DNA of 61,587 nucleotides, taken from NCBI GenBank assembly GCA_015233165.1, contig JADFYF010000003.1:1-61587 (forward strand), read 5' to 3'. Position numbers and translations under genes: made by a program. Below the pieces are notes generated by a model. It did not search any database. It had not been told where the DNA came from and saw only the letters and a list, made by a program, of their open reading frames with translations. Shown piece by piece: positions 20,486-55,495 of the stretch; position 1 is the first letter of the stretch; each line of letters opens with the position of its first letter. Source of the stretch: Candidatus Omnitrophota bacterium. Its GTDB lineage: Bacteria > Omnitrophota > Gorgyraeia > Zapsychrales > Fredricksoniimonadaceae.

Positions 20486-20506
20486 GGATTCTTCGTGAAA
20501 GAGGCA

Positions 20507-27254: not shown

Positions 27255-27557
27255 CTATCTTTTCACTCTTTTTTGAGTCTTAGCAGGTGTACTAGGTATG
27301 GCACCTTGAATGTCATTATTCATGTTATACATTAAACTATTAAAAGACTGTATTTCCGTATCTACTAATGATACGAAGGTGCGGCGATTCTTGATGGAAT
27401 AATTAATCTTATCCTCACGGGCTAGCCAACCCAAAGCCTGAAAAACAACCTGTTCATTTTCTTTCAGGTCTTGGGCCAGCTTAGAAACACCGTACTCCCC
27501 ATTTTGACCCAAAAATCTCCATGTTTTTCCTGCTACTTCAATTATTTTCTCTTTCAT
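27255..27557 (-). CDS. Small winged-helix-like protein (hypothetical)
   Basis: 100 aa with KLAQDLKENEQVVFQALGWLAREDKI, which resembles wHTH-type proteins. Overlaps the glgB stop by 20 nt. Confidence 0.45.
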   Translation of the reverse strand: MKEKIIEVAGKTWRFLGQNGEYGVSKLAQDLKENEQVVFQALGWLAREDKINYSIKNRRTFVSLVDTEIQSFNSLMYNMNNDIQGAIPSTPAKTQKRVKR

Positions 27558-30588: not shown

Positions 30589-32607
30589 TTATCGAGTATA
30601 ATGGTTAATAAAATATTCCTGTGTTGCAAAAGCCGCCTTTTGATTCAACAAACGCGCATATGTCTGGTCACTTTTCAAAACCCTCGTCTTAAGAGTATCC
30701 TTCAAATAACTATCTAGAACAAATTGTAAATGCGTTTTTATTTCAGGCTTGGTGATCTCAAAGAGAAGCTCAACCCTACGATCAAAATTACGGGTCATCC
30801 AATCCGCTGAAGAAAGGAATATCCTCGGAGATCCATTATTATTGAATTGAAAAATACGGGAATGTTCCAGGAACTGACCTACAATACTTCTGACCTCAAT
30901 ATTTTCGCTTAAACCCTCAACGCCAGGAACTAAACAACAAATCCCCCTAACAATAAGCTTAATCTTAACTCCTGCTTGGGAGGCAACATAAAGCTTCTCG
31001 ATCATTTGAACATCTTCCAGGGAATTAAATTTGGCAACAATCGATCCATTCTTATGCTTGCCGTGCTCTTCAATCTCTCGATCAATTAACTCAAAGAAAT
31101 ACTTACGTAAATCATAGGGAGAGGAAATAATCCTCTTCCATGGACTAGGTTGAGAGTATCCTGTAATAACATTAAATACGTCAGCAACGTCACGGGCAAA
31201 ATCATCATTGGCTGTAAAATAACCAATATCAGTGTAAATACGAGCCGTCTTTTCATTGTAATTCCCCGTAGATAAATGAACATATCGACGAATACGCCCC
31301 TCTTCTCTTCGGACAATCAAGGTCATTTTGGAATGAATCTTTAATCCCGCAATTCCATAAATCACATGACAACCAGCCTGTTCCAATTCACGAGCCCATT
31401 GAATATTCTTTTCCTCTTCAAAACGTGCCTTGATTTCTACAACAACCGTCACCTGTTTACGGCGCTTTGCCGCTTCCATCAAAGCCTTGATAATATTGGA
31501 ATCTTCATTCGTACGATACAGCGTCATTTTAATAGCTAGAACATCGGGATCCTTAGCTGCTGTCTGAATTAAGTCTTCTGTTGGGAAGAAAGATTGGTAG
31601 GGCATATGAATAATGAAATCTTCTTCTTTAATCTTATCAAAGATATTCTCATAAGGAGTCTTTGAAGGAACATAACTGTTGAATTTCACTCCTGGACTAT
31701 CAATACTACTAGCCATTTCAAAAAAGAAAGCTAAATCTAAATCAGAAGGTAGAAAAACAATCTCTTCTTTGGCAAAACTTAACCCCTGACACAATGTAGA
31801 AACCAACTCTTCATTAGCCCCCTGCCCCATCTGGACATAGACCGTCTTTGCGCTGGTCCGCTTCTTAAGCTCTTTCTCCATGGCCTTAAGCAAGTTGGGG
31901 GCAAATTCTTCGTCAAAAGCAATTTCGCTGTCTCGCAACAGGCGAAACTCCGAGGAGGACTGAATCTTATATCCTTTAAAGAACTCCTTAAGATTATCCT
32001 TAATTACATAGTCAATAAGGATAAAATGAAACTCCTCCCCTTCTGAGGGAAGCCTCAAAAGTCTTGGAACGGATTTAGGTATAGGAATAATTGCTAAATG
32101 ATTCTTATCTGTACGAACGATAGAAACAGCCAAAGCTATTGTTTTTGATGGCAGTATCGGAAAAGGATGCCCTTGATCGACGGCCATGGGAGTTATGATC
32201 GGATACAGAGTTGTATCAAAATAACGTTTAACAAATTTCTTCTGCCCCTCATTCAGCTCCTCAGAAGTCTTTAGAAAGATCTTATTCTTCTCCAAATCCG
32301 TTTTGATTGATCCCGTATAAATATCATATAAATCTTTAACAAGACTATCGGCTTTAAGCTTAATCTCGCCAAAAATATCCCCAGGTGTAAAACCGAACTG
32401 ATCTTTACGATTATAACCAGCCTCCAGAATCTTCTTCACTCCGGCAACACGCACCATATAAAACTCATCTAGATTGCTGACAAAAATACTTAAAAACTTT
32501 AGACGTTCCAGCAATGGATTGCGCCCATCCGCAGATTCCTCGAGTACTCTTCGGTTAAATTCCAACCAACTTAAATCTCTATGAATAAATTTATCTTTTA
32601 ATTCCAT
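30589..32607 (-). CDS. ppk: Polyphosphate kinase 1
   Basis: 672 aa. Autophosphorylation-His region LKIHSKMTLI and the PPK1 domain order. Confidence 0.92.
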   Translation of the reverse strand: MELKDKFIHRDLSWLEFNRRVLEESADGRNPLLERLKFLSIFVSNLDEFYMVRVAGVKKILEAGYNRKDQFGFTPGDIFGEIKLKADSLVKDLYDIYTGSIKTDLEKNKIFLKTSEELNEGQKKFVKRYFDTTLYPIITPMAVDQGHPFPILPSKTIALAVSIVRTDKNHLAIIPIPKSVPRLLRLPSEGEEFHFILIDYVIKDNLKEFFKGYKIQSSSEFRLLRDSEIAFDEEFAPNLLKAMEKELKKRTSAKTVYVQMGQGANEELVSTLCQGLSFAKEEIVFLPSDLDLAFFFEMASSIDSPGVKFNSYVPSKTPYENIFDKIKEEDFIIHMPYQSFFPTEDLIQTAAKDPDVLAIKMTLYRTNEDSNIIKALMEAAKRRKQVTVVVEIKARFEEEKNIQWARELEQAGCHVIYGIAGLKIHSKMTLIVRREEGRIRRYVHLSTGNYNEKTARIYTDIGYFTANDDFARDVADVFNVITGYSQPSPWKRIISSPYDLRKYFFELIDREIEEHGKHKNGSIVAKFNSLEDVQMIEKLYVASQAGVKIKLIVRGICCLVPGVEGLSENIEVRSIVGQFLEHSRIFQFNNNGSPRIFLSSADWMTRNFDRRVELLFEITKPEIKTHLQFVLDSYLKDTLKTRVLKSDQTYARLLNQKAAFATQEYFINHYTR

Positions 32608-32608: not shown

Positions 32609-34144
32609 TTAATCCTGATTCTTTACCGTTAAGGTTAATTTGTTTCCTGTAATTTCCTCAAACAATTCTCTCTTCTCTAAGAAATTCTCCTTCTCCAATA
32701 AGAAATTATCGTTCGTAAAAACAACTATTGTCGCATCTCCCGACGCATTAAACTTAATCTCCATACGTTTAGCCTTCTGCTTATGAGAGCGATCTAAGGC
32801 ATTAGCAATACGCAACAAAGCGCTTAGCTTTTGAACTAAAATTTGCTGATTAGAAGACAGGGAGCTGTAAACCAAATGCGTCTTCAAAGGGGCCGAACGC
32901 CTGTGATAACGGGCAATACAGGCAATGATATTAATCTCATCCTCTGTTAAACGAAACAAACTAGAAGAACTAATGATATATTCACTGTGCTTATGATGAG
33001 CTCGATTATTGATAAACATCCCTAAATCATGAAAATAGGCCGCCAAAATCAAATACAGACGATCCTGCTGGGTTAATCCCAGAATATCCTTAAACGCATC
33101 AAAAAGCTTCTCGGTGATAAAAGCAACATGTTTAAGATGCTCTAAATCCATCCCGTATTTACGACACATGAAATGGGCCACAGAAATTAATTGGCTTAAC
33201 TTGTCCGTCTTCTCTGTTGCCTCTAAACGAAACAACTGATTGGCCATAATGGCTTCTGATAAAGAGGCTTCCAGAATATAAACATGCTCATTCTTAGTAA
33301 GTTTAAGAAGTGTATTAAGGATAATGGCAAAACCTATAATCGTCGTCGATATATCTGCAGGAATATTATAGGTACGGGCAATATTTTCCGGATTCATTTC
33401 TCTAAGTCGAGATAGGAACTCTTGAGCCTCTGAAGATTTAAACTTAAAAAAATCTGAATCACGACGCTTATTAGGCAAAATATTCTGAATAAAAACAGAA
33501 TAGTTCTCATCAATAAGAATAATGTCATCAATAACTAATCCGGGGTTATTCTTCTTAAGAAATAAAATCTCATTCTCGATATACTCCTCAGTAGCCTCAT
33601 GAATCTCCTGCATGGAGCCCTCTAAATTCTCCATAAACTGAGATAAGCGCAAGGTCCCAATAGGAAAACCGATATTCATCAGCGTTAACCCGCGGGCCAT
33701 CACCGACATATCCAAACTTCCCGCTCCCAATTCCGCGATCAAAAGATTCTTCTCTCCCACCGGATAGGTCTTCTGTAATTTATGATAAAGATAATAATCA
33801 ATGTAATAAACAACATCGCCAACGTTTAAGACATCAATCTTAAAACCCGTCTTACGTAAAACTGTATCTAAGAAAATATCTTGGTTACGGGCTTCACGAA
33901 CCGCCGTGGTAGCAATAACCGAGACCTCTTTTACATCATATTCTTTAAGGGTTTCCTTGTATTTCTGTAAAACTAAGGCGGTTTGATTGATAATCGTCTG
34001 CGGAATACGACTTTTAAGAAAAGCATGCCGCCCCAAAGGGACGTTATTTCTTAACGACTCAATAATCTTAACATCCTCCCCATGACGCTCCCCGATGAGA
34101 AGCTTGGTTGAAGATGAACCTATATCAATAACTCCAACACGCAT
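32609..34144 (-). CDS. ppx: Exopolyphosphatase (Ppx/GppA) with a C-terminal HD domain
   Basis: IDIGSSSTKL actin-like ATPase fold; HDLG HD motif. 1-nt gap to ppk. Confidence 0.88.
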   Translation of the reverse strand: MRVGVIDIGSSSTKLLIGERHGEDVKIIESLRNNVPLGRHAFLKSRIPQTIINQTALVLQKYKETLKEYDVKEVSVIATTAVREARNQDIFLDTVLRKTGFKIDVLNVGDVVYYIDYYLYHKLQKTYPVGEKNLLIAELGAGSLDMSVMARGLTLMNIGFPIGTLRLSQFMENLEGSMQEIHEATEEYIENEILFLKKNNPGLVIDDIILIDENYSVFIQNILPNKRRDSDFFKFKSSEAQEFLSRLREMNPENIARTYNIPADISTTIIGFAIILNTLLKLTKNEHVYILEASLSEAIMANQLFRLEATEKTDKLSQLISVAHFMCRKYGMDLEHLKHVAFITEKLFDAFKDILGLTQQDRLYLILAAYFHDLGMFINNRAHHKHSEYIISSSSLFRLTEDEINIIACIARYHRRSAPLKTHLVYSSLSSNQQILVQKLSALLRIANALDRSHKQKAKRMEIKFNASGDATIVVFTNDNFLLEKENFLEKRELFEEITGNKLTLTVKNQD

Positions 34145-34213: not shown

Positions 34214-35422
34214 TTACCAAATAATAGGCTCAGCGCCCAAATCCCCCTTTAAAATCACACCAGCTATCCCTAAAGCAATAAATATTAAGAAAATTAAGAA
34301 CGAATATTGGAGTACCCCATAGAACATGCGATTGAGCTTCTTGATCCATAAAATAGCCTCTACTGTACAAAATAAAAGCATCGGAGCAAAAAATAAATAA
34401 ATGCGAGGGACCCCAAATGGAATCTTCTTAAAAGCACTTAAAACAAAACACTCTAAAAGAACACAACCAGCAACACTGCCAATGCTTGTAAACCGAAACC
34501 CGTCTTTCTTAAAAGTTGGAAATGCCATGAACAATAATCGTAGCAACCCCATTCCAATGAAAAATCTTGCCACCATTCGAATCCATTTGGGCTTATCAAC
34601 AAACCAATGACAGATTAAATTATTAATCCCCTCTTGTAAACTTCTGAAGAACTCCCTCGGAGAGTCAAAACTAATAATATAGTTCTTCCAGTAAACAATC
34701 ATTAAGTGGGCGTTACTTAGACGGAAATCATAATAATAAACCATCGATAAACAAACTATGCAGAACAACAAATAAACAATCATCAAGGGACGCCAACAGG
34801 ATTCTCGTCTGGCATCCATCCACAGATTATATAAAGGCAAAGGCATAAAGAAAAACGCTGCATAGGATAATACCCCTAACATAGAAAGGACTACTAACAT
34901 CATCCCATACATCCAACGAGACCATCTCTCCTGAATACTCTTTTGATGATACAAAAACAATAAAAATATCGCCCCCACTAAGACATCCATCGAATATTGC
35001 TTTAACTCAGCAGCATAATAGATCAAAGGGGCTGATGCCGTCCAACATAATACAAATGTCAAAACCCCTACCATCGACGACATTTGTCTTTTGACCAAGA
35101 ATATCCAAATTAAAAAAGCCATCACCATCATCACAAAAGGAAAAAAACGTAAGGCCAAAAGATGCCCATTAAAAACACTGGAAAAGAGGCCAATACCATA
35201 AAGATAAACTCTGGGAAACTCCTGATCATGAGAAAGCCCTTGATGAAACATTCGATCTAAGGAGCCATTAGTAATATTGGCATAGACACAGGCTTCATCA
35301 TTCCAAAGAGGCCTTTGATTAAAATAATGAAGCACGGCCATAAACAGATACCATCCGATCACAAATAAAACTACTAAAGAAAGTTTCTTCATCAAAATTG
35401 TCCCGTAATATCTCTCATACAA
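34214..35422 (-). CDS. Polytopic membrane protein, possibly a PMT/ArnT-like glycosyltransferase
   Basis: At least 9 hydrophobic segments. First loop motif PLWNDEA resembles the DE motif of GT39/GT83 enzymes. This is a weak call. Confidence 0.35.
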   Translation of the reverse strand: MYERYYGTILMKKLSLVVLFVIGWYLFMAVLHYFNQRPLWNDEACVYANITNGSLDRMFHQGLSHDQEFPRVYLYGIGLFSSVFNGHLLALRFFPFVMMVMAFLIWIFLVKRQMSSMVGVLTFVLCWTASAPLIYYAAELKQYSMDVLVGAIFLLFLYHQKSIQERWSRWMYGMMLVVLSMLGVLSYAAFFFMPLPLYNLWMDARRESCWRPLMIVYLLFCIVCLSMVYYYDFRLSNAHLMIVYWKNYIISFDSPREFFRSLQEGINNLICHWFVDKPKWIRMVARFFIGMGLLRLLFMAFPTFKKDGFRFTSIGSVAGCVLLECFVLSAFKKIPFGVPRIYLFFAPMLLFCTVEAILWIKKLNRMFYGVLQYSFLIFLIFIALGIAGVILKGDLGAEPIIW

Positions 35423-35423
35423 A

Positions 35424-35462
35424 CAAAAAAACCGTCCACCAGCGTCTCACGCTGATGAACGG
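35424..35462 (-). terminator. Rho-independent terminator ending the ParA-to-slyD operon
   Basis: On the minus strand: ccgttcatcagcg-tgaga-cgctggtggacgg followed by TTTTTTT. Confidence 0.85.
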
Positions 35463-35499: not shown

Positions 35500-35970
35500 T
35501 TAATGATGACATCCACCTGTACCGTGGACATGTCCATGAGCGACTTCATCAACAGAGGCTATTCTCCGTTCCACAATCTCAACAGCAAAGGTTAAGTCCT
35601 GACCGGCTAGAGGATGATTCCCATCGAGGGTAATGTCATCTCCTTCAATATGAATCACAGACACAGGAAAACTTTCCTTGCCATTCCCCGCCTCAAAGAC
35701 ATCCCCCATATTAATCTGAGGAGTCGGCAACTTACTACGGGATACTTTATAAACCAAGGTTTGATTATAAGCACCATAGGCTTCCTTAGAAGGAATCGTC
35801 ACTGTCTTTTTTTCAGCAGGTTTCATCTGCATCAAGACATTCTCCAAACCAGGGATAATCTGACCAGATTCAGTTATAAAGATTAGAGGGTGGCCTTCGC
35901 CGGATGCATCGATCACCTTTTGATCTTTATCTGTTAACGTATAATTAAATGAAATTACTTCTTTAGACAC
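35500..35970 (-). CDS. slyD: FKBP-type peptidyl-prolyl isomerase SlyD with a His/Cys tail
   Basis: FKBP plus IF-domain layout. Tail HGHVHGTGGCHH. Confidence 0.88.
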   Translation of the reverse strand: MSKEVISFNYTLTDKDQKVIDASGEGHPLIFITESGQIIPGLENVLMQMKPAEKKTVTIPSKEAYGAYNQTLVYKVSRSKLPTPQINMGDVFEAGNGKESFPVSVIHIEGDDITLDGNHPLAGQDLTFAVEIVERRIASVDEVAHGHVHGTGGCHH

Positions 35971-36019
35971 ACGACCCCTCTTTCTCTACCTTCTGGCAGA
36001 CAAACTGCTTAATTAATAA

Positions 36020-36199
36020 TTACTTCTTCATCATAGGACAGGTCTTTTGCTCACCAGCAAAGGGACAATGGCCTGAACCAAAAATATATCCACAGGCAAA
36101 AATAAGCAACGCTAAGACGACACCTATAATGATTTTCTTAATCCCACAACAACTGCTTTTACCTGTACTGCAACATCCCTCTTTTTTCTCTTCACTCAT
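36020..36199 (-). CDS. 59-aa Cys-rich single-TM protein (unannotated, below the ORF-track cutoff)
   Basis: Hand translation: MSEEKKEGCCSTGKSSCCGIKKIIIGVVLALLIFACGYIFGSGHCPFAGEQKTCPMMKK. A strong Shine-Dalgarno sequence (caGGAGGatgct) lies before the ATG at 36197-36199. Confidence 0.6.
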   Translation of the reverse strand: MSEEKKEGCCSTGKSSCCGIKKIIIGVVLALLIFACGYIFGSGHCPFAGEQKTCPMMKK

Positions 36200-36231
36200 A
36201 GCATCCTCCTGATTAGATTGAATTTAAATTT

Positions 36232-36684
36232 CTATGGATTGGGCGTCTTCTTAAAATCATACGTCACAATACGTAGTTTCTTTGGATCAGAAATTAAAAT
36301 AGCCGGCTCCTTCTGATGTTCCATCGCCTCTTGAAGGGCATACTGAAGCTCGTCTGGGCTACCAATAAATTTAGGTTTAGGATGCTGCCAATTTTGTTGA
36401 AAATCGATAACCACACGCTGAACAGCATTATTGTAACTCATTTTACTAAGCTTCTGTTGTCCATCGTCTACAACCACAGGAGAAATCATTGGCCCTTGGG
36501 GCACAACATTAATCATTCCAATCGGAACAACCACAATCTTCTGACCTGTTTTCTGATAATCTTCAAAAGAACTAAACCTCTTCCCTCCAGAATAAATCTC
36601 GATGGCGGCCTGGGCAGATGAAGCTGATAGGATCAACAAGATTAAAACAAATACCTTCTTTGACATCTTCATTCCTTTAAACAT
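36232..36684 (-). CDS. Hypothetical secreted protein
   Basis: Signal peptide ...LSASSAQA. No recognisable domain. Its start codon overlaps the upstream gene's stop codon by 1 nt. Confidence 0.6.
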   Translation of the reverse strand: MFKGMKMSKKVFVLILLILSASSAQAAIEIYSGGKRFSSFEDYQKTGQKIVVVPIGMINVVPQGPMISPVVVDDGQQKLSKMSYNNAVQRVVIDFQQNWQHPKPKFIGSPDELQYALQEAMEHQKEPAILISDPKKLRIVTYDFKKTPNP

Positions 36685-37103
36685 TAATGCTCTCTCGCCT
36701 GTAAAATACGCCCAACAAACTCCTGTTCAAAAAGACCTTCCATCTTCTTAAGTTCTTTAGAACCTAAAAAATATTCAATAGCCTCTTCAATGGCTGTCAG
36801 CCTATTCTTTAAATATAGATACTGTGGATGAAGAATAACACCTTTGTCATCAGAGAATTTTTGTTTAATCTCATCTCGTCTTTTATGAGCGATATAGACT
36901 TCAAATTCTTCAACCTGTTGCTGATAGTCTTTAAGCAATGCCCCTTTAGGCTTTGCCAACTTATTCACGGTTTTTAATAGACGCTCATCAACCATCAACT
37001 GAGTAGTTTTACGTTCAATTCTCTCAAAAGACTCCCGCGTCGTTTTATATGCCCAAAGCAAATAACGGCGAATAAGATCTTTATGTAAAGCGCTAAGTTT
37101 CAT
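36684..37103 (-). CDS. Hypothetical helical protein
   Basis: 139 aa, charged and helical. Translationally coupled on both sides. Confidence 0.55.
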   Translation of the reverse strand: MKLSALHKDLIRRYLLWAYKTTRESFERIERKTTQLMVDERLLKTVNKLAKPKGALLKDYQQQVEEFEVYIAHKRRDEIKQKFSDDKGVILHPQYLYLKNRLTAIEEAIEYFLGSKELKKMEGLFEQEFVGRILQAREH

Positions 37104-37282
37104 TATTGAAATTTGATAGTATTATCGACGTCATGAATCATGTTAATTGTGCTATTGAGCGTTCTATTAACAGATTCTGACATAGGGCCTGAGTTTGGTT
37201 TCAAAATAACCAAAAATACGAGGACGACTGCCACAACAAGCAGGATATATTCAATAAGATTTTGTCCTTTTGCATTATTCAT
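37103..37282 (-). CDS. 59-aa Flp-like (class III signal peptide) small protein, unannotated
   Basis: Hand translation: MNNAKGQNLIEYILLVVAVVLVFLVILKPNSGPMSESVNRTLNSTINMIHDVDNTIKFQ. This matches the Flp G/XXXXEY motif followed by a hydrophobic helix. Its stop TAA overlaps the next ATG (TAATG). Confidence 0.5.
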   Translation of the reverse strand: MNNAKGQNLIEYILLVVAVVLVFLVILKPNSGPMSESVNRTLNSTINMIHDVDNTIKFQ

Positions 37283-37303
37283 AATACAAATATACCATAT
37301 CCT

Positions 37304-37783
37304 TTATTTATAAACAACATCCTCGATGGTTACCGGCTTATCCACCTTCAGTCCTATGATTTGCCCTTTTTTAGCCACCTTGACATCCTGACTCTCAATC
37401 TGCATAGACCAAACCTTCTGTACAAACTTACTCTTCTGCCCCACAATCGTTAATTTATCCCCAATAAGAACGGTACCATGAGTAATTTTGACAACACAGA
37501 CGTTAATCCGTTCAAAATAATGAGTAATCTCTCCCACACGAATCAAGGCTGGATCTAACTCAAGTTTCTTAATCTTAGGCGCTGCAGCAACCTTTAGAGG
37601 CTTAATAGGCTTCTCGATCTTCTTTGTCTTAATCGTTTTAACTGCTGACGATTTCTTAACAATCTTCTTGACCACCTGCCGCTTAGCGACCTTCTTACGA
37701 CGGGCTGTAGATTTCTTTTTCGGAGGGGTTTTAATCCAAAATACTTCTTTAAGAACATCAGATAATTGATTAAGGATGGACAT
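37304..37783 (-). CDS. Lys-rich disordered N-terminus plus an EF-Tu domain-2-like beta-barrel protein
   Basis: PPKKKSTARRKKVAKRQVVKKIVKK...KIKK, then RVGEITHYFERINVCVVKITHGTVLIGDKL..., which resembles translation-factor-like barrel proteins. Confidence 0.5.
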   Translation of the reverse strand: MSILNQLSDVLKEVFWIKTPPKKKSTARRKKVAKRQVVKKIVKKSSAVKTIKTKKIEKPIKPLKVAAAPKIKKLELDPALIRVGEITHYFERINVCVVKITHGTVLIGDKLTIVGQKSKFVQKVWSMQIESQDVKVAKKGQIIGLKVDKPVTIEDVVYK

Positions 37784-37807
37784 TTTTAACTCACGACCTA
37801 AGGCTTA

Positions 37808-38125
37808 TTACAAGGATATCTTATCGGCCCAATTAGACACTAGAGGTAACCGTACAAATTCTCCTTTAAGAACAGCAATCAAGCCCCAAAAAGATAAGAC
37901 TAGGAGGATAAAGGTCAAAGGTGCCAATAAAACCGGAATAACAATACTCACAATCCAGATGGCAACTTCAGCAACAAAAATAACCAACCCCTGCTTGCCA
38001 TGAGCCAAAACGAATGGATTGTTCTTTTTTAATATTAACGGAAGTATGCAGAGAATGGATAGGTACGAAAGAAGAGCATAAATTTTTCCATCGAGAATGT
38101 CTTCTTTGGAAAAACCATTCAACAT
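37808..38125 (-). CDS. Small membrane protein (DUF4870-like)
   Basis: YALLSYLSILCILPLILKK...HGKQGLVIF pattern with 3 TM segments. Confidence 0.5.
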   Translation of the reverse strand: MLNGFSKEDILDGKIYALLSYLSILCILPLILKKNNPFVLAHGKQGLVIFVAEVAIWIVSIVIPVLLAPLTFILLVLSFWGLIAVLKGEFVRLPLVSNWADKISL

Positions 38126-39282
38126 TAAGCCTTAACCTCAATAAGAGAATTAATATCTCCAAAAGAATTGCGTTCAGTGTTTTTGTTTTCAGGATCTTCC
38201 TGCCATTTACCATCAACGATAAATTGATACTTATAAGTACCCGGCTTAAGTGACATACGTAATTTCCAGACACCCTGATCATTCGTCATACGGCACTTTT
38301 CATCTAAGGACCAATCATTGAATGACCCCGTTACAAAAACAGACTGAGCTGTTGGAGCTTTTAAAGCAAAGTTGGCCAATCCCACAAATTCCGCTGTTTC
38401 TTTAGCGACCAACTCTTCCATACGGACAGAAGGTTCATAGGCCGCCTGATCTTGAGCGACAACAGGTTTAACAAGAGCTCTCTCAACAGCTTTCTCTAAT
38501 TTAACGGGTTCAGCCACAGACAGAGGTTTATCTAACATGAGAAGTTCCCGGGCTAAACTTAAATAATCTTTTGAACCACGGCAATATTTATCATACTTTA
38601 AAACAGACTCTCCCATCACCGCTGATTCCTTCAGCTTAACGTTGACATGAACAATGGTATCATAAAGAAGCTTTCCAAATTTCTCTTTCATTTTAGCAAG
38701 CATGGAAAAAGAATGGCGCAGGCGAGAATCAAACATCGTAATCAAAATTCTCTGAGAAACAGGATGATTCAGTCGGTCACGAATCAAATTAATAATATCT
38801 GTAATGTGATCCACACCCTGCATTGAAAAACGACTCGTCTCGACGGGGATAATCACCTGATCCGAAGCACGGATAGAGTTGACGGTTAAGAACCCTAAGC
38901 TGGGAGGACAATCAATAAGAATATAATCGTACTGATCTTTAATCTCAGAGAGAATCTCAACCAACTTCAATTCACGACCAATTTCATCCGCTAATTCTTG
39001 TTCCAGAGTTCCTAACAAAACATTGGAAGGAATAATATCAAAATTCTTATCCGCGCGTTTGATAATTTCTTTGATCTTTAATTTACGAGGCGTTAATTTG
39101 GAAATAACATTATAAAGACTATAGCTGTCGTCGATATTAAGACCTAATGTAGCATGAGCCTGAGGATCTAAATCAATCAGAAGAGTTTTCTTGCCATTGT
39201 ATCCAAGAGTTGAAGCTAAATTAATTGCAGTTGTTGTCTTACCGCATCCACCCTTTTGATTGGCTATGGAAAAAATTTTCAT
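38125..39282 (-). CDS. ParA/MinD-type ATPase fused to a C-terminal AMPK-beta/CBM48-like glycogen-binding module
   Basis: Deviant Walker A NQKGGCGKTTTAINLA. The C-terminus VFVTGSFNDWSLDEKCRMTNDQGVWKLRMSLKPGTYKYQFIVDGKWQEDPEN parallels the AMPK-beta GBD pattern GSFNNW...G.H.YKF.VDG.W..DP. Confidence 0.8.
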   Translation of the reverse strand: MKIFSIANQKGGCGKTTTAINLASTLGYNGKKTLLIDLDPQAHATLGLNIDDSYSLYNVISKLTPRKLKIKEIIKRADKNFDIIPSNVLLGTLEQELADEIGRELKLVEILSEIKDQYDYILIDCPPSLGFLTVNSIRASDQVIIPVETSRFSMQGVDHITDIINLIRDRLNHPVSQRILITMFDSRLRHSFSMLAKMKEKFGKLLYDTIVHVNVKLKESAVMGESVLKYDKYCRGSKDYLSLARELLMLDKPLSVAEPVKLEKAVERALVKPVVAQDQAAYEPSVRMEELVAKETAEFVGLANFALKAPTAQSVFVTGSFNDWSLDEKCRMTNDQGVWKLRMSLKPGTYKYQFIVDGKWQEDPENKNTERNSFGDINSLIEVKA

Positions 39283-39303
39283 AAACCTTATTCCTCTGAT
39301 TAA

Positions 39304-39882
39304 TTAGAGATTAGAAAACGAAACATCGTCGATAAAAACTACACCCTTTTTAAAATCCACATTCCACGCTTCCAGCACAAAAGAAACATCTGTCACTGTG
39401 CTCCAGTCCGTCAAGTTCAGCTTATCTAAAGAGATACTAACCTTCTGCCAACCGCCCTGCACATTTTGAATATAATACGTGGCTTTTTCATTGAGCTGAT
39501 TTCCAACCACCATTTTGACGATACCCGGATAAGCTTCTTTAGATCCTCGGATCGTTAAATTTAAATGACTATATTTAGACGCATCCTTTTTAGGTATTGT
39601 GATTGAAAAAGTTTTTGCCGACGGAAACGGATCATTAAGATCATAAGCAATACGAATCGGATTATTGGTCAAAGAATAAAAAACTTGATTATTAAAAACC
39701 ACCCGACGAGTTAAGAAAGCTGTAAACCCATACACCGTCGATATTAAAATGACAGTCGTGATAACAACATTAATAACCATCCACGACTGATTGAGAGTCT
39801 TCTTTTTCTTTTCTTCGACAATATCTTGACGCTTACCAAGGTAAACCTTGGCTAGGTGGTCATAAATCTCATCACGTGTCAT
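39304..39882 (-). CDS. Membrane-anchored protein with a beta-sandwich-like ectodomain (hypothetical)
   Basis: One TM segment (MVINVVITTVILISTVYGF), then a beta-rich region ending VVFIDDVSFSN. First gene of the operon. Confidence 0.5.
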   Translation of the reverse strand: MTRDEIYDHLAKVYLGKRQDIVEEKKKKTLNQSWMVINVVITTVILISTVYGFTAFLTRRVVFNNQVFYSLTNNPIRIAYDLNDPFPSAKTFSITIPKKDASKYSHLNLTIRGSKEAYPGIVKMVVGNQLNEKATYYIQNVQGGWQKVSISLDKLNLTDWSTVTDVSFVLEAWNVDFKKGVVFIDDVSFSNL

Positions 39883-40051
39883 GCGTTACAATCACTCACT
39901 TCTATTTAAAAGAAATTATTAACAATCTCTAACTGATTCATTTGTAATAACTTAGTGTTACAAAAATATATTAACAAAGAAAAATGAAATGCAAAATATT
40001 ATCTAAGAAATTTTTGATCAAGAGAAATGATAGCTCGACGAGAGATAAAGA

Positions 40052-40087
40052 AAAACCCCGCGTTCTGTGAAGAACGTGGGGTTTTTC
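40052..40087 (-). terminator. Rho-independent terminator of the porin gene
   Basis: aaaaaccccgcgttc-tgtga-agaacgtggggttttt; T-runs on both strands. Confidence 0.85.
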
Positions 40088-40113: not shown

Positions 40114-41508
40114 TTAGAAATTAACTCCAACTGAAGCGATCGCTTGTTTTGCAACGCCATCGTTAGCCGCTGTGAATGCACGACCTGGAACAAACCAGCC
40201 TAGGTTTAAACCGAACTTCACGTCTTCGGTATAAGCATAGGATACGTTAGCATCAAATTCATTACCTAATTCTTTATTTGATGTAACTTGAGGAGTAAAC
40301 GTATTTGTAGCAGCATCTGGTTGCATTAAATAACTACTGCCTAAAGTAGTGATACCAGCTTCGGTGCCAGCCGTTAATTTCTGAGCAGCCCAAAGACCAT
40401 TCCAGCTTAAGCTGGTGGTAACATCAGCGATAGGATTAGCAGAAACAGTTGCGTTCAAGATCTGCAAATTCGATAATTTGAAAATGGAATTGAAGATTGT
40501 TCCACCATTTTGATTTTCGAACATTGGATCCCAAGCGCTATTCTTGTAATTGTTATCACCCGTAGCACTCTTATCACCAGAAACATAGGTATAAGAAGCG
40601 CTGACGGTTGGCTTGTATTTAGCTAACTTTTCGCATTGTAATGCATAGCTAACCATACCCTGTAAAGCTAAACCATCACGCTTCTGGTTAAGAGTACCGG
40701 TAGGATTGCTGTTACCACGTTGCAAAGCACCTTCCACTTGCACATTCAACCCTTTAACAGGATTGGTGCTAGCGCGTAAACCAGGAGCAAAAAGATGATC
40801 AGAAGGAGTTCTAGCAGAACCTGCGGTTAGAGCACCTTTTCCTGTGTTTTTACCAAACACATAGGCTTCAACCACGGTATTCATAGCATCACCCAACTGA
40901 TAGTTAGCATTGATACCATAAGCATCGGTATTATCTTTTTGAGCACCAAGTCCCTTAACATTACCCTGAGCAACCTTACCCATGAAAATATCGATGGTCA
41001 AAGGCTTGTAATCCAAGGTAACTCTGACAGCGTCAAGTGATGATCTCATCGATAAGTCATTAGCAACGTTATCTAATGCTCCACCATTAGCGCCACCTGG
41101 ACCTGTTGCATCAAAAACCAGGCTATTACCAAAGGCAAAAACCTGACGACCAACGGTCACAGTTAACGGAGAATATAAAAACTCACGCATTGTGACATAA
41201 GCTAAATACACATCAACCGCATCGGTATTAGTCCCTATTGGAGAAATACTACCCCAGACGCGTTCGTTGATCAAACCGACCGTTGTAGACACATTGTCGC
41301 TTAAATCAGCGTCAACACGGAGGCCTGTTTGTGTTAAAAACAGACTTTGTCTGGAATGATCCCCCACGAATCTTTGATTAAAATTGAAGTCTTGACGATT
41401 TACATAGGTACTATCGACGAAACCGCTGACCTTCACGTTCTGAACGGCAGCGAAAGCTGGAGCAGCCATAAGGAAGGCAACAGCTAAAGCTAATACTAAT
41501 TTTTTCAT
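40114..41508 (-). CDS. Outer-membrane beta-barrel porin-like protein
   Basis: Signal peptide ...APAFA, alternating beta-strand pattern, C-terminal ...VGVNF. Confidence 0.65.
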   Translation of the reverse strand: MKKLVLALAVAFLMAAPAFAAVQNVKVSGFVDSTYVNRQDFNFNQRFVGDHSRQSLFLTQTGLRVDADLSDNVSTTVGLINERVWGSISPIGTNTDAVDVYLAYVTMREFLYSPLTVTVGRQVFAFGNSLVFDATGPGGANGGALDNVANDLSMRSSLDAVRVTLDYKPLTIDIFMGKVAQGNVKGLGAQKDNTDAYGINANYQLGDAMNTVVEAYVFGKNTGKGALTAGSARTPSDHLFAPGLRASTNPVKGLNVQVEGALQRGNSNPTGTLNQKRDGLALQGMVSYALQCEKLAKYKPTVSASYTYVSGDKSATGDNNYKNSAWDPMFENQNGGTIFNSIFKLSNLQILNATVSANPIADVTTSLSWNGLWAAQKLTAGTEAGITTLGSSYLMQPDAATNTFTPQVTSNKELGNEFDANVSYAYTEDVKFGLNLGWFVPGRAFTAANDGVAKQAIASVGVNF

Positions 41509-41819: not shown

Positions 41820-42473
41820 CTAATCGTGCGGATGATGCTTCACATCGCGGCCTTCAACGATGTAAATAACCTCTTCAGAGATATTGGTGGCTAAATCCGC
41901 GATGCGTTCAAGGTTATGAGCAATACGCATCAATTGCAGGCAACGGGGAATCACATCTATCTTACCCCGCATCAATTCCGTTAAATCCTTAAGAATCTTA
42001 TCTCCGGCATCATCCACAATGCTGTCCCGTTCACAGACAGCCTGAGCCAGGGTGACATCTTCATTAACAAAGGCATTAATACTGTCTTTGAGCATACGAA
42101 CTGAATTCTCTCCCATTAGCCTTAAATCGTCCGAAGACGTCATGACAGGATTTTGAAGAAGAAAAACACCGCTTTCGCAGATATTCACCGCATGATCCGC
42201 CATACGTTCAAGATCCTTGTTCATTTTAATGATCATAATAACCATCCGAAGGTCTCGCGCCACAGGCTCATACTGAGCAATCAGCTCTACGCACATTTTC
42301 TCAATATCACGATCATAATCATTCACTCTGGGCTCATACGTATTGATCACCTCTTCTAACAGGCCAGAGTTTCTATCCAGAAGGCCCCGGATACTCTTAC
42401 CAATCATGTCTTCAACAAGAGAAGCATCTTGAATTAATTTATGCTTGAGCTCTACAATTCTATCTTTAAACAT
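41820..42473 (-). CDS. phoU: Phosphate signalling protein PhoU
   Basis: Duplicated PhoU repeats; 217 aa; follows pstB. Confidence 0.9.
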   Translation of the reverse strand: MFKDRIVELKHKLIQDASLVEDMIGKSIRGLLDRNSGLLEEVINTYEPRVNDYDRDIEKMCVELIAQYEPVARDLRMVIMIIKMNKDLERMADHAVNICESGVFLLQNPVMTSSDDLRLMGENSVRMLKDSINAFVNEDVTLAQAVCERDSIVDDAGDKILKDLTELMRGKIDVIPRCLQLMRIAHNLERIADLATNISEEVIYIVEGRDVKHHPHD

Positions 42474-42503
42474 AACACTCCTTATAAAACGACACGCCTA
42501 TGA

Positions 42504-43259
42504 TTAACCGAACTTTCCTGATAAATAGTCCTCGGTCCGTCGGTCTTTAGGAACCGTGAAGATCTTCTTTGTCAAATCGTATTCTATCAAATTACCTAAA
42601 TAAAGGTAAGCAGTATAATCGGAAACTCTGGCCGCCTGCTGCATATTGTGCGTTACAATGACGATGGTATAATTGGCCTTCAAATGATGCATCAATTCTT
42701 CGATATGCCCTGTCGCAATAGGATCCAGGGCTGAACAGGGCTCATCCATCAACAAGATATCCGGCTTCACAGGCAATAATCGTGCGATACACAAACGCTG
42801 TTGCTGCTCCAGGGAGAGGTTTAATGCCGATGTATTGAGCTTATCCTTAAGACCATCCCACAAATCAACGGCTTTTAAAGACTTCTCTATAATATCTCCG
42901 TATTCCTTAGGAGCCGCACTCCTATGAATCTTAACGCTAAAAAGAACATTCTCTGCCACTGATAAAGGGAAAGGATTAGGTCTTTGAAAAACCATCCCCA
43001 CCTTCTTACGCAACTCAACTAAATCCATCCCCGGATCATTGACATTCTTACCATCAACAATAACCTCTCCATTAACCGAAACGTCCTCGAGCAGATCATT
43101 CATCCGATTATAGGCTCGTAACAAGGTGGATTTACCGCAACCCGAAGGGCCAATCATCGACGTAATCATATTCTTAGGGATATCAATATTCACATCCTTA
43201 AGAGCGTGGAAGGTTCCATAAAAAAGATTAAAATTCCTCGTCTGAATAATCGCGCTCAT
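42504..43259 (-). CDS. pstB: Phosphate ABC transporter ATP-binding protein
   Basis: Walker [10 protein letters not shown], signature LSLEQQQRL, C-terminus RTEDYLSGKFG. Confidence 0.92.
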   Translation of the reverse strand: MSAIIQTRNFNLFYGTFHALKDVNIDIPKNMITSMIGPSGCGKSTLLRAYNRMNDLLEDVSVNGEVIVDGKNVNDPGMDLVELRKKVGMVFQRPNPFPLSVAENVLFSVKIHRSAAPKEYGDIIEKSLKAVDLWDGLKDKLNTSALNLSLEQQQRLCIARLLPVKPDILLMDEPCSALDPIATGHIEELMHHLKANYTIVIVTHNMQQAARVSDYTAYLYLGNLIEYDLTKKIFTVPKDRRTEDYLSGKFG

Positions 43260-44017
43260 TAACCAAATCTCCCTGAAATATAATCATCTGTGCGACGATC
43301 AGAAGGAGATGTGAACAGTTTTCTAGTGTCATCCACCTCGACTAATTGCCCCATCAAGAAAAATGCTGTTCGATCCGCCACTCGCGCGGCCTGCTTTGTG
43401 TTATTTGTTACCAAAATCTGAGTATACTTTTCCTTGAAACGAACCATGGCTTCTTCAATTTTCGCCGTCGATATAGGATCCAGCGCAGAGCAGGGTTCAT
43501 CATAAAGTATAATCTCAGGGTCAACAGCTAAGGTCCTTGCTAAACACAATCTCTGCTGCTGGCCTCCGGAAAGCTTCATCCCGTGCTCCCCTAAACGATC
43601 CTTCACCTCATCCCACAAATAAGCGGCTTGCAAAGAACGCTCTACCGCCTCAGCAATCTTGTTCTTGTCTTTAATGCCATGACGTCTTAAACCATAAGCC
43701 ACATTTTCAAGAACTGTCATAGGCAGAACCGTCGGCAAAGCAAAAACCATCCCCACCTTCTTACGTAACTTTTCTACGTCGATATCTGAATAAATGTTAA
43801 CCCCATTGACCGTTAACGTTCCCTTAAAATGGAAAGACGCATACATATCATTAAAACGATTCAGACAACGCAGGAAGGTTGTCTTACCGCTATTCGACGG
43901 CCCAATGATACTTAAAATCTCATTTCCATAAACTTCCAAAGAAAGAGCTTTAAGAACCTCGTGAGTTCCATATCGGACATTCAAATCCAAAGCCTGTACC
44001 TTCACTGTTTTTACCAT
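43259..44017 (-). CDS. pstB: Second PstB-like ATP-binding protein
   Basis: Walker [20 protein letters not shown]-terminus RTDDYISGRFG. Confidence 0.85.
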   Translation of the reverse strand: MVKTVKVQALDLNVRYGTHEVLKALSLEVYGNEILSIIGPSNSGKTTFLRCLNRFNDMYASFHFKGTLTVNGVNIYSDIDVEKLRKKVGMVFALPTVLPMTVLENVAYGLRRHGIKDKNKIAEAVERSLQAAYLWDEVKDRLGEHGMKLSGGQQQRLCLARTLAVDPEIILYDEPCSALDPISTAKIEEAMVRFKEKYTQILVTNNTKQAARVADRTAFFLMGQLVEVDDTRKLFTSPSDRRTDDYISGRFG

Positions 44018-44862
44018 TTTCTCTTTTTTCTAAAATGCGCCCGCACAATAATAGCGATGAGATTCAACGACAACACAATCATCAAAAGCACCAGGGCTGT
44101 TCCATAGCGAACTTCCAACTTAATATTCGGAACCTGGGTGGAGATCACATACAAGTGATACGGTAACGCCATCGCCTGATCAAAGATGGACTTAGGCAGA
44201 CGAGGCAGATAGAACGCAGCTACCGTAAATAAAATTGGGGCTGTCTCCCCTGCCGCTCTGGAAACTGCCAAAATCATACCGGTCAATATACCGGGTAAGG
44301 CATGCGGCAAAACCACATGGCGAATCGTATCCCACTTAGAAACCCCCAGCGAATAACTCACCTGACGAAAAGACTGCGGAACGCTGTCTAACGCTTCTCT
44401 GGTGGTTGTAATAATAATCGGCAACACCATAATCGCCAAGGTCATCGAACCTGCCAATAGCGAGGATCCGAACTTCAAGAATACAACAAAAATGCCTAAA
44501 CCAAACAAACCGTACACAACAGACGGAACACCTGCCAGGTTGATGATCGCCAACTTAACCATACGCGTCAGGAAGTTGTCCTTGGCATACTCCGATAAAT
44601 AAATCGCTGAAAGAATTCCCAACGGTAAGGCAAAGACCAGGGTTCCAAAGACCAAGTACAAGGTTCCGACAATCGCTGGAAAAATCCCCCCTTCACGCAT
44701 GCCTTTTCTTGGCATTTGAGATAAGAACTCCCAGGAGATCGCATGCCAACCTTCTTTAACGATAAAGAACAGAATGCAAATAACAGGCAACACAACAATC
44801 GCTGTTGCTATAAACAGAAGTGTAAAGGCAATTCTCTCTCTGAAATAAGGGTTCTTGATCAT
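44011..44862 (-). CDS. pstA: Phosphate ABC transporter permease PstA
   Basis: 6-TM permease, second permease in the pstSCAB order. Confidence 0.88.
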   Translation of the reverse strand: MIKNPYFRERIAFTLLFIATAIVVLPVICILFFIVKEGWHAISWEFLSQMPRKGMREGGIFPAIVGTLYLVFGTLVFALPLGILSAIYLSEYAKDNFLTRMVKLAIINLAGVPSVVYGLFGLGIFVVFLKFGSSLLAGSMTLAIMVLPIIITTTREALDSVPQSFRQVSYSLGVSKWDTIRHVVLPHALPGILTGMILAVSRAAGETAPILFTVAAFYLPRLPKSIFDQAMALPYHLYVISTQVPNIKLEVRYGTALVLLMIVLSLNLIAIIVRAHFRKKRKW

Positions 44863-45743: not shown

Positions 45744-45745
45744 TC

Positions 45746-46597: not shown

Positions 46598-46649
46598 AAC
46601 ATCTCCTTAACTAGATGAATTGGTTTACCTTTATAATATAAAAATTATA

Positions 46650-46677
46650 TTAAGATTAGGTTAAGGAGATATTAAGG
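46650..46677 (-). promoter_or_regulatory. Three TTAAG repeats at exact 11-bp phasing (candidate Pho box) before pstS
   Basis: TTAAG occurs at 46650, 46661 and 46672. On the minus strand the last repeat abuts TATAAT. Confidence 0.5.
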
Positions 46678-46682
46678 TTGTG

Positions 46683-47342: not shown

Positions 47343-47360
47343 AACACTTCTCCTTGGGGT

Positions 47361-48182: not shown

Positions 48183-48191
48183 AAAATCCCC

Positions 48192-50050: not shown

Positions 50051-50061
50051 TCTTCAATCGT

Positions 50062-51069: not shown

Positions 51070-51088
51070 AAAGGCTTCCTTTCTTTAA

Positions 51089-53872: not shown

Positions 53873-53912
53873 ATATTTTCCTTTGGTTAATGTTGAAATA
53901 TTTTTCATAGTA

Positions 53913-55494: not shown

Positions 55495-55495
55495 T

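Follow-up and report, generated by a model that had tools for sequence, protein, structure and literature searches.

What does a ParA-type ATPase do when a glycogen-binding module is fused to its C-terminus and no parB gene lies beside it? The question is raised by a locus in a Candidatus Omnitrophota bacterium (GCA_015233165.1, contig JADFYF010000003.1, positions 1 to 61,587 of the forward strand); the window below is this whole stretch of 61,587 nt. A sequence-only reading of this DNA had proposed a system that positions storage granules. A literature search found no description of a ParA-CBM48 fusion.

The 385-residue fusion protein (38125..39282, minus strand) consists of a deviant-Walker-A ParA ATPase, a linker and an AMPK-β-type CBM48. 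The ParA/Soj-type ATPase domain, with the Walker A sequence KGGCGKTT, spans residues 1-251 (38530..39282, minus strand), of which residues 1-173 match AAA_31/ParA (PF13614, E 3.2e-55). Among solved structures M. xanthus ParA ranks first (8RAY, E 1e-49), followed by the Soj proteins of H. pylori and T. thermophilus; target-normalised Foldseek TM scores against Soj/ParA are 0.92-0.94 (about 0.93), and identity to genuine chromosomal ParAs from other phyla is 41-46%. The variable linker (residues 252-300; 38383..38529, minus strand) is poorly conserved, has low AF2 pLDDT (45-74 over about residues 251-300, with the low-confidence stretch at about 252-285) and ranges from 4 to 175 residues across the family, with a median of 33. 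The C-terminal module (residues 301-385 and the stop codon; 38125..38382, minus strand) matches AMPK1_CBM (PF16561) over residues 312-384 (E 7.3e-17; 61.8 bits, cut-off 26.8) and CBM_48 (E 1.9e-7). Both domains score above the curated Pfam cut-offs, and both the ATPase and the CBM48, a predicted β-sandwich, reach AF2 pLDDT > 90. Profile searches and structure prediction thus bear out the initial description of a ParA with a C-terminal AMPK-β glycogen-binding module.

The sugar-contact site of this module is well preserved. The C-terminus aligns to the glycogen-binding domain of rat AMPK β1 (1Z0N/1Z0M, E 1e-9, ∼40% identity) and resembles the AMPK-β/CBM48 group, which also includes SEX4, PTST and the N-terminal module of GlgB, in its two-tryptophan platform and asparagine. 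In the window's fusion the equivalents of AMPK β1 W100, W133 and N150 are identical and that of L146 is phenylalanine. Unlike in AMPK-β, the K126 equivalent is glutamine in the window's clade, with a lysine two residues earlier, and the module sits on a P-loop positioning ATPase rather than on a kinase scaffold or a glucan-active enzyme. Across 93 diverse fusions of only 32-43% identity, the W100 equivalent is present in all 93 and the W133 equivalent in 90, while the basic position is K/R in 91 and the asparagine position N/D in 87. Judging by this alignment, strong selection acts on the residues that contact glucan.

The full fusion occurs in at least 62 Omnitrophota species representatives at 57-84% identity, and the ParA+CBM48 architecture in 132 of the 150 best representatives of 50%-identity clusters. 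Identity reaches 87% among relatives, and the gene is single copy per locus except in one MAG. Such conservation and copy number also fit an essential housekeeping role, for example chromosome segregation.

On sequence comparison, chromosomal Soj/ParA proteins are the nearest relatives of the ATPase, yet it belongs to a separate, coherent subfamily that spans several candidate phyla. It shares with the chromosomal proteins of M. xanthus (8RAY), B. subtilis and T. thermophilus the deviant Walker A with its signature lysine, the motif-2 aspartates, Walker B and the non-specific DNA-binding positions (B. subtilis R189 is R187 in the fusion, and M. xanthus R238 is K216). In contrast to these proteins, it carries an extra linker and CBM48, has cysteine for the canonical valine of KGGVGKTT throughout the subfamily, and replaces the motif-2 asparagine (N64) with histidine. 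The ParB-contact residues D110 and V116, which canonical ParAs keep unchanged or conserve functionally, are also replaced across the fusion family: D110 is lost and V116 is glutamine. The roles of the residues compared here are taken from PMC12462528.

The claim that no ParB-like gene is adjacent extends beyond the window. A Bacillus Spo0J query with a threshold of E<1e-3 found no ParB either in the window or in 10 kb around 65 related clade-1 loci, where the fusion, unlike chromosomal ParA/Soj, stands among unrelated partners. In sister clades, the gene after the fusion starts with KKLG(K/R)G(L/I)E(D/E)I in seven of seven contexts (for example, KKLGKGLEDI). By its sequence, this start is a ParA-binding motif like that of ParB, although the proteins that bear it are not ParBs, and it shows that the fusion family works with dedicated partners.

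Nine minus-strand ORFs fill positions 35500-39882, neighbours overlapping by 1 nt or spaced by 21-49 nt, in agreement with the tightly coupled string noted earlier. The further description as a nine-gene operon holds in part: hairpin terminators flank the string on either side, but only a core of six to seven genes is conserved across the 65 related loci. The core comprises protein A, the fusion, a DUF4870 protein, protein D, a Flp-like peptide and helical protein F; SlyD, a Cys-rich peptide and a 150-aa protein are lineage-specific. The string is preceded by the proposed AT-rich leader (39883..40060, minus strand), which lies between the two terminators, with GC at 0.345 for 39001-40000. A sigma-70-type consensus scan found no minus-strand match in 39883..40060 and overall gave no more promoters than shuffled sequence did, so the leader is only presumed to hold the promoter. 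The second hairpin and T-run, at 40061-40076, lies 3′ of an upstream outer-membrane β-barrel gene of the Alginate_exp/Porin_4 type (40114..41508, minus strand; PF13372, E 9e-15).

Protein A (39304..39882, minus strand; 192 aa), a candidate partner or anchor for the ATPase, lies directly upstream of the ParA gene in 61 of the 65 loci. AF2 predicts a cytoplasmic N-terminal helix (residues 4-15), one TM helix (32-61) and a periplasmic CBM-like jelly roll (68-190) at pLDDT of about 80-92; the N-terminal helix, MTRDEIYDHLAKVYLGK, is near-invariant. The top Foldseek matches of the outer domain are CBM11, CBM8, CBM28 and CBM4, with BcsB also among the matches, and both predictions agree with the membrane-anchored β-sandwich first described. 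Profile matches are weak (CBM11 structure 1V0A, E 0.03; CIA30 and CBM_11 in Pfam). Protein C (37808..38125, minus strand; 105 aa), a small multi-pass membrane protein, directly follows the ParA gene in 55 of 65 loci. It had been called DUF4870-like, and a match to DUF4870/MamF_MmsF exists but is weak (PF09685, E 0.035), as is the precomputed PF09685 match of its homologue in L001.

Protein D (37304..37783, minus strand; 159 aa) is a candidate ParB analogue or adaptor, with an N-terminal amphipathic helix, a Lys/Arg-rich disordered tail and a C-terminal β-barrel. It is found in 58/65 related loci and in a clade whose fusion is 52% identical (L088). Its barrel appears EF-Tu-domain-II-like: 38 of 50 family members match PF03144 (best E 4e-7), and the profile matches SelB/eIF5B domain II at E 0.03. 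Protein E (37103..37282, minus strand; 59 aa) bears the Flp-type pilin-like motif KG/QNLIEY and was found in 30/65 loci, probably an undercount for so short a peptide. Its assignment as Flp-like stands at the family level (motif G/QNxIEY), where Q6 and E10 never vary, Y11 is conserved to at least 90%, and 18 of 26 members match Class_IIIsignal and 11 match Flp_Fap. Protein F (36684..37103, minus strand; 139 aa), a conserved helical cytoplasmic protein of 43/65 loci, has 19 invariant positions in its family alignment and found no family in a Pfam search. Most of the conserved neighbours, namely protein A, the Flp-like peptide, the DUF4870 protein and the porin, belong to the envelope, and a cytoplasmic granule-partition model needs none of them.

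Genes for glycogen and polyphosphate had been reported close by, and the window does hold ppx (32609-34144), ppk1 (30589-32607), a ROK kinase gene (29618-30583), glgB (27538-29538), a GH57 gene (24780-27233) and malQ (23287-24783). However, this closeness is lineage-specific: of the 65 related loci only the five closest have such genes within 10 kb, and the other 60 have no glycogen gene within that distance. In four of four clade-2 loci, a GH57 branching enzyme and DUF4912 lie four genes further downstream, and in the 52% clade a GH57 enzyme stands two genes upstream of the fusion with a protein A homologue between. Glycogen synthesis is predicted for Omnitrophota MAGs (PMC8542988).

The conserved fusion, kept glucan residues, missing parB, changed ParB contacts, and the partners and GH57 enzymes of the sister clades together make a cargo-type orphan ParA a reasonable reading. 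We tentatively prefer, at somewhat less than even confidence, an orphan ParA-type positioning system with a glucan-holding CBM48 over an ordinary ParABS chromosome partitioner. The fusion ATPase descends from chromosomal Soj/ParA and has diverged at the ParB-contact site. To judge from its retained residues, it probably still dimerises with ATP and binds nucleoid DNA non-specifically. The ATP dimer on the nucleoid would hold α-glucan (glycogen) particles through its two CBM48 modules on flexible linkers, until operon partners trigger ATP hydrolysis and release; the candidate triggers are protein A, through its invariant N-terminal helix, and/or protein D, through its own N-terminal helix and polybasic tail. 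In this way glycogen might be distributed across the nucleoid, divided between daughter cells or passed to an envelope site. DNA binding, glucan binding, an activating partner and the positioning outcome are each what we infer.

This arrangement recalls McdA/McdB, which positions carboxysomes, and ParC/ParP, PomXYZ and PpfA, systems in which an orphan ParA-type ATPase sits beside small family-specific partners, presumably uses the nucleoid as matrix and moves a cargo other than DNA. In known ParA systems, however, the activator of the ATPase sits on the cargo. There the ATPase is recruited and activated by a cargo-borne adaptor, whereas the fusion carries the putative cargo-binding module itself, so the origin of a gradient or ratchet is hard to see. 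The proposed cargo is also a polysaccharide, and the fusion is much nearer Soj than McdA (E 1e-49 versus 1e-14). Positioning of glycogen by the fusion is plausible. For the original storage-granule claim, the conserved fusion, its glucan residues and the absence of an adjacent parB speak in favour, while the rarity of nearby glycogen genes and the envelope partners speak against. More broadly, a conserved fusion with its own non-ParB partners suggests an undescribed placement of storage sugar or of an envelope complex in the cell.

The fusion might instead be the cell's own chromosome-partitioning ParA, served by a non-canonical or distantly encoded ParB, its CBM48 acting as an AMPK-like sensor that couples segregation or replication control to glycogen or energy state. 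Identity to chromosomal ParAs, Soj/ParA as top structural matches, retained DNA-binding residues and a core gene at 57-87% identity with one copy per locus in all but one MAG would all suit this role, as would the position of the cluster just upstream of rpsO-pnp-ftsK-rodZ in many relatives. Nonetheless, family-wide replacement of D110 and V116, no parB within 10 kb in 65 loci, non-ParB partners bearing the activating peptide in sister clades, and a coherent multi-phylum subfamily marked by distinct Walker A and motif-2 signatures make it unlikely. A different doubt concerns the module itself, which could have lost carbohydrate binding and serve protein-protein contact or dimerisation in an orphan ParA that is ordinary in other respects. 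AMPK1_CBM-like folds do occur in non-glycan proteins (the T9SS plug protein family NF052315 matches the fusion at E 4e-9), the K126 equivalent is glutamine in the window's clade, and most clade-1 loci have no nearby glycogen genes. Yet near-invariant platform tryptophans across such divergent fusions, the likewise kept basic and Asn positions, and GH57 enzymes recurring in two other clades leave a module without carbohydrate binding very improbable.

The envelope genes invite another explanation, in which the ATPase positions or regulates an envelope machine as BcsQ (cellulose) or TadZ/CpaE (Tad pilus) do. Its cargo would be a membrane complex close to the outer-membrane porin, made up of protein A, the Flp-like peptide and the DUF4870 protein, with the CBM48 and the periplasmic CBM-like domain of protein A handling polysaccharide on either side of the inner membrane. 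The parallels are several: a ParA/MinD ATPase encoded with membrane proteins (four of the six to seven conserved genes are envelope proteins) and an outer-membrane barrel, a periplasmic carbohydrate-binding subunit, and a Flp pilin as in Tad. The cytoplasmic helix of protein A suits docking to a ParA/MinD ATPase, its jelly roll matches CBM11, CBM4 and BcsB, and in a sister clade a type IV pilin-like gene stands in its place. The porin keeps its position, ∼2.2 kb upstream of the core, in 56/65 loci and in L088; its own terminator, however, cuts it off from the operon. Although Pfam BcsQ matches at E 8.5e-10, the similarity is distant (Foldseek TM 0.76-0.79 for BcsQ and TadZ/CpaE) and the ATPase is far nearer Soj. 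The fusion lacks a receiver-like domain, its locus has neither BcsA/BcsR/BcsE nor TadABC, and the core is not accompanied by any conserved synthase, glycosyltransferase or secretion ATPase. The CBM48 site, moreover, matches binders of α-glucan, a cytoplasmic store. We therefore consider an envelope machine improbable.

The tail of the string is less conserved than its core. Protein G (36232..36684, minus strand; 150 aa), which reads as a secreted or periplasmic protein with a signal-like N-terminus, occurs in only 16/65 related loci at 24-50% identity, and protein H (36020..36199, minus strand; 59 aa), a Cys-rich micro-protein with one TM helix, in 6/65. The last gene (35500..35970, minus strand) encodes a peptidyl-prolyl isomerase of the SlyD-type FKBP group whose tail is rich in His and Cys, as had been recognised (FKBP_C, E 4e-14; PRK10737, E 3.5e-28, a match short of the equivalog cut-off). 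Nine of the 65 loci have a SlyD, mostly at another place, and it is last in the operon only in the closest relatives. Just after slyD, the strong terminator that had been predicted is present at 35422..35462 (minus strand), with its hairpin at 35462-35432, a 14-bp stem of 8 GC pairs followed by the T-run TTTTTTTGTT.

The 385-aa product encoded on the minus strand at 38125-39282, in which a ParA ATPase is joined by a linker to a C-terminal CBM48 module of the AMPK-beta type, is a member of a large, old protein family and no local accident. Its database relatives number in the thousands. The best 120 are all full-length, 70-87% identical and built from the same domain set, and those that carry a name all come from Candidatus Omnitrophota. 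A scan of one genome per species recovered the complete fusion, 57-84% identical, from at least 62 Omnitrophota-type MAGs. Next in rank came ordinary chromosomal Soj proteins from Bacilli and Flavobacteriia, 41-44% identical over residues 2-249; one such locus (L066) shows the classic noc-soj-spo0J order. When 1.84 billion cluster representatives were searched exhaustively with phmmer, 132 of the best 150 hits had ParA with a C-terminal CBM48. The hosts are Omnitrophota, other PVC-group MAGs and Schekmanbacteria, with named members of the distant clades listed under Omnitrophota, 'PVC group bacterium' and Candidatus Schekmanbacteria. Among 93 aligned family members, the linker measures between 4 and 175 residues. 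The fusion itself, first noticed in a single sequence, is thus widely conserved. In databases these proteins go by 'AAA family ATPase' or 'chromosome partitioning protein', and the full-text literature searched, which leaves most subscription journals outside its reach, contained no account of ParA joined to CBM48, nor of a glycogen ParA system. One MAG (nzgw314) carries two copies of a cluster of protein A, the fusion, the DUF4870-like protein C and protein D on two contigs (L035 and L065), with ParA 67% and 64% identical to the window's; these may be true paralogues or reflect a mixed bin.

The sequence-only reading had likened the C-terminus to the AMPK-beta glycogen-binding domain, and both profiles and alignment bear this out. 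The fusion scores above threshold against both ParA (AAA_31/ParA, PF13614, E 3e-55) and CBM48 models: its C-terminus matches AMPK1_CBM (PF16561) at 61.8 bits (E 7e-17; gathering score 26.8) and CBM_48 (PF02922) at 31.7 bits, against a cut-off of 22.4. The last 72 residues align to the glycogen-binding domain of rat AMPK beta1 (1Z0N/1Z0M) at ∼40% identity (E 1e-9). An AF2 model (71 homologues, mean pLDDT 90) predicts the ATPase (residues 1-251) with confidence and the linker with little, and makes residues 302-383 an all-beta domain at pLDDT 91-97; a Foldseek search with the whole model gave ParA matches only. We take W100, K126, W133, L146 and N150 to be the carbohydrate-contact residues of AMPK beta1, as in the 1Z0M cyclodextrin complex. 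Their counterparts in the window protein are W324, Q353 (with K351), W360, F374 and N378. W100, W133 and N150 are therefore retained, Phe stands for L146 and Gln for K126; a conserved Lys precedes this Gln by two residues in the same strand. Among 93 fusions that are 32-43% identical to the window protein, the two Trp positions are kept in 93 and 90, the basic K/R position in 91 and the N/D position in 87; the L146 position is mostly aromatic (F/Y in 65/93). By these residues, the carbohydrate-contact set of a CBM48/AMPK-beta domain appears to be present.

The ATPase domain has the features of the ParA/MinD deviant Walker A family, namely the Walker A motif xKGGxxK[ST] with its signature Lys, the motif-2 Asp residues and the Walker B Asp; K10, K15, D37, D39 and D124 do not vary among 93 family members. 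Of the solved structures, chromosomal ParA from Myxococcus xanthus (8RAY, E 1e-49) comes closest and Soj of H. pylori and T. thermophilus come next, whereas McdA, MinD, FleN and BcsQ lie far behind as structural relatives. The roles of individual ParA residues have been established for the M. xanthus protein, whose numbering gives a canonical ParB-binding site of Y81, E82, D110, V/I116 and E117 plus a hydrophobic pocket (PMC12462528). When 19 canonical ParAs were set beside 64 sequences from the window's clade and 92 diverse fusions, this site proved not to be conserved in the fusion family. D110 has become Leu and V116 Gln in all 64 clade sequences. Across the wider family, mostly small or hydrophobic residues take the place of D110, with none acidic among the four commonest, and Gln occupies the V116 position in 69/92. 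E117 is retained in the window's clade and in 36/92 of the wider family, and Y81 and most pocket leucines are retained. The catalytic core is kept as well. Besides the changes at D110 and V116, two further features set the family apart: the Walker A Cys (KGGCGKTT; 86/92 diverse fusions and 63/63 clade sequences) and a His in place of the motif-2 Asn (89/92).

R187, which corresponds to B. subtilis R189, is kept in 85/92 family members and throughout the window's clade. K216 aligns to M. xanthus R238 (K/R in 69/92), and the equivalent of R235 is lost. Basic residues of the kind used for non-specific DNA binding thus seem to be in place at the B. subtilis R189 and M. xanthus R238 positions, and with the catalytic core, R187 and the basic K216 retained, such binding by the fusion is plausible. 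The missing ParB-like neighbour remarked on in the window proved to be a wider trait: tblastn with a Bacillus Spo0J query found no ParB at E<1e-3 in the window, nor within ∼10 kb in 65 related loci of the same clade, whose sequences run to 21 kb. We conclude that the ATPase represents a subfamily of its own, derived from Soj, which does without a canonical ParB encoded nearby.

The fusion lies in a string of nine ORFs on the minus strand at 35500-39882, joined by 1-nt overlaps or 21-49 nt gaps, exactly where the sequence-only reading had placed it. Both of the borders it proposed, an AT-rich leader and a strong terminator, are visible. An intrinsic-terminator-like hairpin follows the upstream porin gene (40076-40061, then GGGGTTTTT), the leader is AT-rich, and a strong intrinsic-terminator-like hairpin follows the last gene (35462-35432, 14 bp, then TTTTTTTGTT). 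One flank holds ppx, ppk1, a ROK kinase gene, glgB, a GH57 enzyme gene and malQ; the other holds the porin and two pst operons.

As an operon of nine, the arrangement is conserved in its core but not at its downstream end. When the window proteins were compared with the 65 related loci by tblastn, the fusion was found in all 65, protein A in 61, protein D in 58, the porin in 56, the DUF4870 protein in 55 and the helical protein F in 43. The Flp-like peptide (protein E) was found in 30, a count that is probably too low for so short a sequence. The 150-aa protein G (16/65), the Cys-rich peptide H (6/65) and SlyD (9/65, mostly elsewhere) lie outside the conserved core. In the clade of L088, ∼52% identical, only A, the fusion and D are left of this core, and a GH57 enzyme gene sits between porin and A. 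The glycogen and polyphosphate genes noted near the operon are indeed present in the window (ppx, ppk1, glgB, GH57, malQ), but of the 65 loci only the five most closely related have them within 10 kb, and we reject the linkage as a general property of the clade. In most other relatives the cluster is followed by rpsO-pnp-ftsK-rodZ.

Protein A, proposed to be a membrane-anchored beta-sandwich protein, has the predicted form of a short N-terminal helix, a TM helix and a jelly-roll domain. In a model built from database homologues only, the best structural matches of this domain by Foldseek are CBM11, CBM8, CBM28 and CBM4, and also BcsB; profiles lend weak support to a CBM-like nature. Its N-terminus, M(T/N)(R/K)(D/E)(E/D)IYDHLA(K/Q)VYLGK, is nearly invariant, while identity elsewhere falls to 43%. 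Protein D combines an amphipathic N-terminal helix, a Lys/Arg-rich tail of variable length and a C-terminal beta-barrel like domain II of translation GTPases. The invariant helix of A and the helix and polybasic tail of D make these two proteins candidate activators. Hydrophobic residues in the helix of A are spaced as in a ParB motif read backwards, and a loose phi-x-D-x-L-x-x-V-[YF] pattern is common to A and D; both likenesses are at most suggestive.

Among the other members, the DUF4870-like protein does match its namesake, if weakly. The Flp-like peptide has the G/xxxxEY processing motif and following hydrophobic helix of Flp/Fap pilins in the form KG/QNLIEYILLV (family motif G/QNxIEY), in which Q6 and E10 do not vary and Y11 is kept in at least 90% of sequences; 11/26 family members match Flp_Fap and 18/26 Class_IIIsignal, all below the gathering score. 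The product of the last gene gives SlyD-type FKBP matches: FKBP_C at 53 bits, above cut-off, and PRK10737 at 98.8 bits, below the equivalog cut-off of 174. Its C-terminus is a tail rich in His and Cys, HGHVHGTGGCHH. Just before it, a 59-aa ORF contains CCSTGKSSCCG and one TM helix. The two (35500-36199) may form a metal-handling pair, and neither is conserved with the ParA core.

More distant fusion lineages offer a different kind of partner. In 7/7 sister-clade loci examined (L084, L085, L089, L091; L086/L087; L092; L090), the gene directly after the fusion starts, as in the peptide KKLGKGLEDISYLF, with KKLG(K/R)G(L/I)E(D/E)I..F(L/I)S. This closely resembles ParB's ParA-binding motif, LG(R/K)GLxxLI (PMC12462528), and the rest of these proteins is unrelated to ParB. 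The 'LG(K/R)GL' activating peptide would thus have moved onto unrelated proteins, and its presence suggests that the family works with dedicated activators. Four of these loci also encode, four genes on, a DUF4912 protein together with a GH57 branching enzyme. The fusion family is therefore repeatedly, though not universally, linked to glycogen enzymes. The ∼305-aa partners continue after the motif into an apparent degenerate P-loop/ParA-like fold (L084 9107-10704; also L085, L089, L091, L086, L092 and L090), and the next gene resembles a NucS/PD-(D/E)xK nuclease domain with an acidic tail. The DUF4912 proteins (L084 11601-14415, L085, L089 and L091) have a Lys-rich N-terminal tail reminiscent of protein D and adjoin the branching enzyme, which has a BE_C domain; a literature search turned up nothing that connects DUF4912 with glycogen.

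Our preferred, if tentative, reading is an orphan ParA positioning system in which the ATPase carries a glucan-binding module in cis. ATP dimers on the nucleoid would hold glycogen, and operon-encoded partners would trigger its release. Of the earlier granule-positioning hypothesis, the fusion and its putative glucan site have proved conserved, while a role in granule partition is something we still only infer. Three considerations keep this reading short of an even chance: the envelope nature of A, C and E and the conserved porin are left unexplained, most of the window's clade lacks any linkage to glycogen genes, and an ATPase bound to its cargo would not obviously make the gradients on which known systems rely. 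In the window's clade, the fusion may link glycogen to an envelope complex. It is somewhat more doubtful still that the whole undescribed family of Soj-derived ParAs recognises a polysaccharide storage particle directly through CBM48, with clade-specific activators.

The alternatives seem less probable. A chromosomal ParA with a glycogen-sensing domain would keep to the function of its closest structural relative; the parB pairing of a canonical ParABS ParA is absent from the window and the 65 related loci, and we regard this explanation as unlikely. The BcsB-like match of A and the Flp-like peptide bring to mind a localiser like BcsQ or TadZ that would serve an envelope polysaccharide or pilus complex. 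The conserved neighbours include no BcsA/BcsE/BcsR or TadABC synthase or secretion ATPase such as these localisers are encoded with, nor does the operon hold tad genes, and we give this reading similarly little credence. Least probable is a CBM-like domain that no longer binds sugar: although Gln has replaced K126 in the window protein, the conservation of two surface tryptophans over such distance argues for a ligand-binding function, the ligand being most simply an alpha-glucan. An anti-phage defence role was rejected, as PADLOC gave no significant hits.

ParA/MinD ATPases are a general bacterial means of placing large objects, among them chromosomes, plasmids, carboxysomes, chemoreceptor arrays, flagella and division sites. 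To our knowledge, all of these cargos are reached via an adaptor protein, and how bacteria distribute glycogen is essentially unknown. What we propose as new among positioning ATPases is the ParA-CBM48 architecture, with glycogen as its cargo: a glucan-binding site conserved across a widespread ParA subfamily would put glycogen forward as a candidate. If true, this would be the first ParA/MinD system to have a cargo other than DNA or a protein assembly, and the ATPase would for the first time act as cargo receptor itself. In McdAB-like systems, by contrast, a cargo-bound adaptor recruits and stimulates the ATPase. An ATPase that binds its own cargo bears on gradient and ratchet models. The new type of cargo and the adaptor-less architecture should interest specialists, the more so as the claims lend themselves to work in vitro: the proteins are small and soluble, making the central claims, which concern glucan binding, DNA binding and activation by peptides from protein A, protein D or the sister-clade partner, heterologously testable even though the hosts are uncultured.

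The wider surroundings add several minor observations. The stretch 41820-52423 contains a tandem pair of pst-type operons for phosphate ABC transporters, PhoU-like genes included, and a Porin_5 porin at 51089-52423. Together with downstream ppk1 and ppx, they put the ParA operon inside a phosphate/polyphosphate neighbourhood that relatives keep in part (pst in ∼20/65 loci, ppx and ppk1 in ∼5/65). The glycogen gene group includes an 817-aa GH57 enzyme fused to DUF3536 (24780-27233), and phosphoglucomutase is encoded at the far end of the window (1760-3178). A type IV pilus cluster running from ∼8939 (secretin) to 20956 contains two full PilB-type T2SSE ATPases (16618-20956), each preceded by a stand-alone ORF with little beyond an MshEN (c-di-GMP-binding) domain. 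Finally, a second FKBP-type isomerase, with an FKBP26 IF domain, adjoins a znuA/ABC-3 zinc-uptake cluster (53309-56455); its ORF and the beginning of the ABC-3 permease ORF share ∼115 nt, which makes it likely that one start codon or the other has been miscalled.
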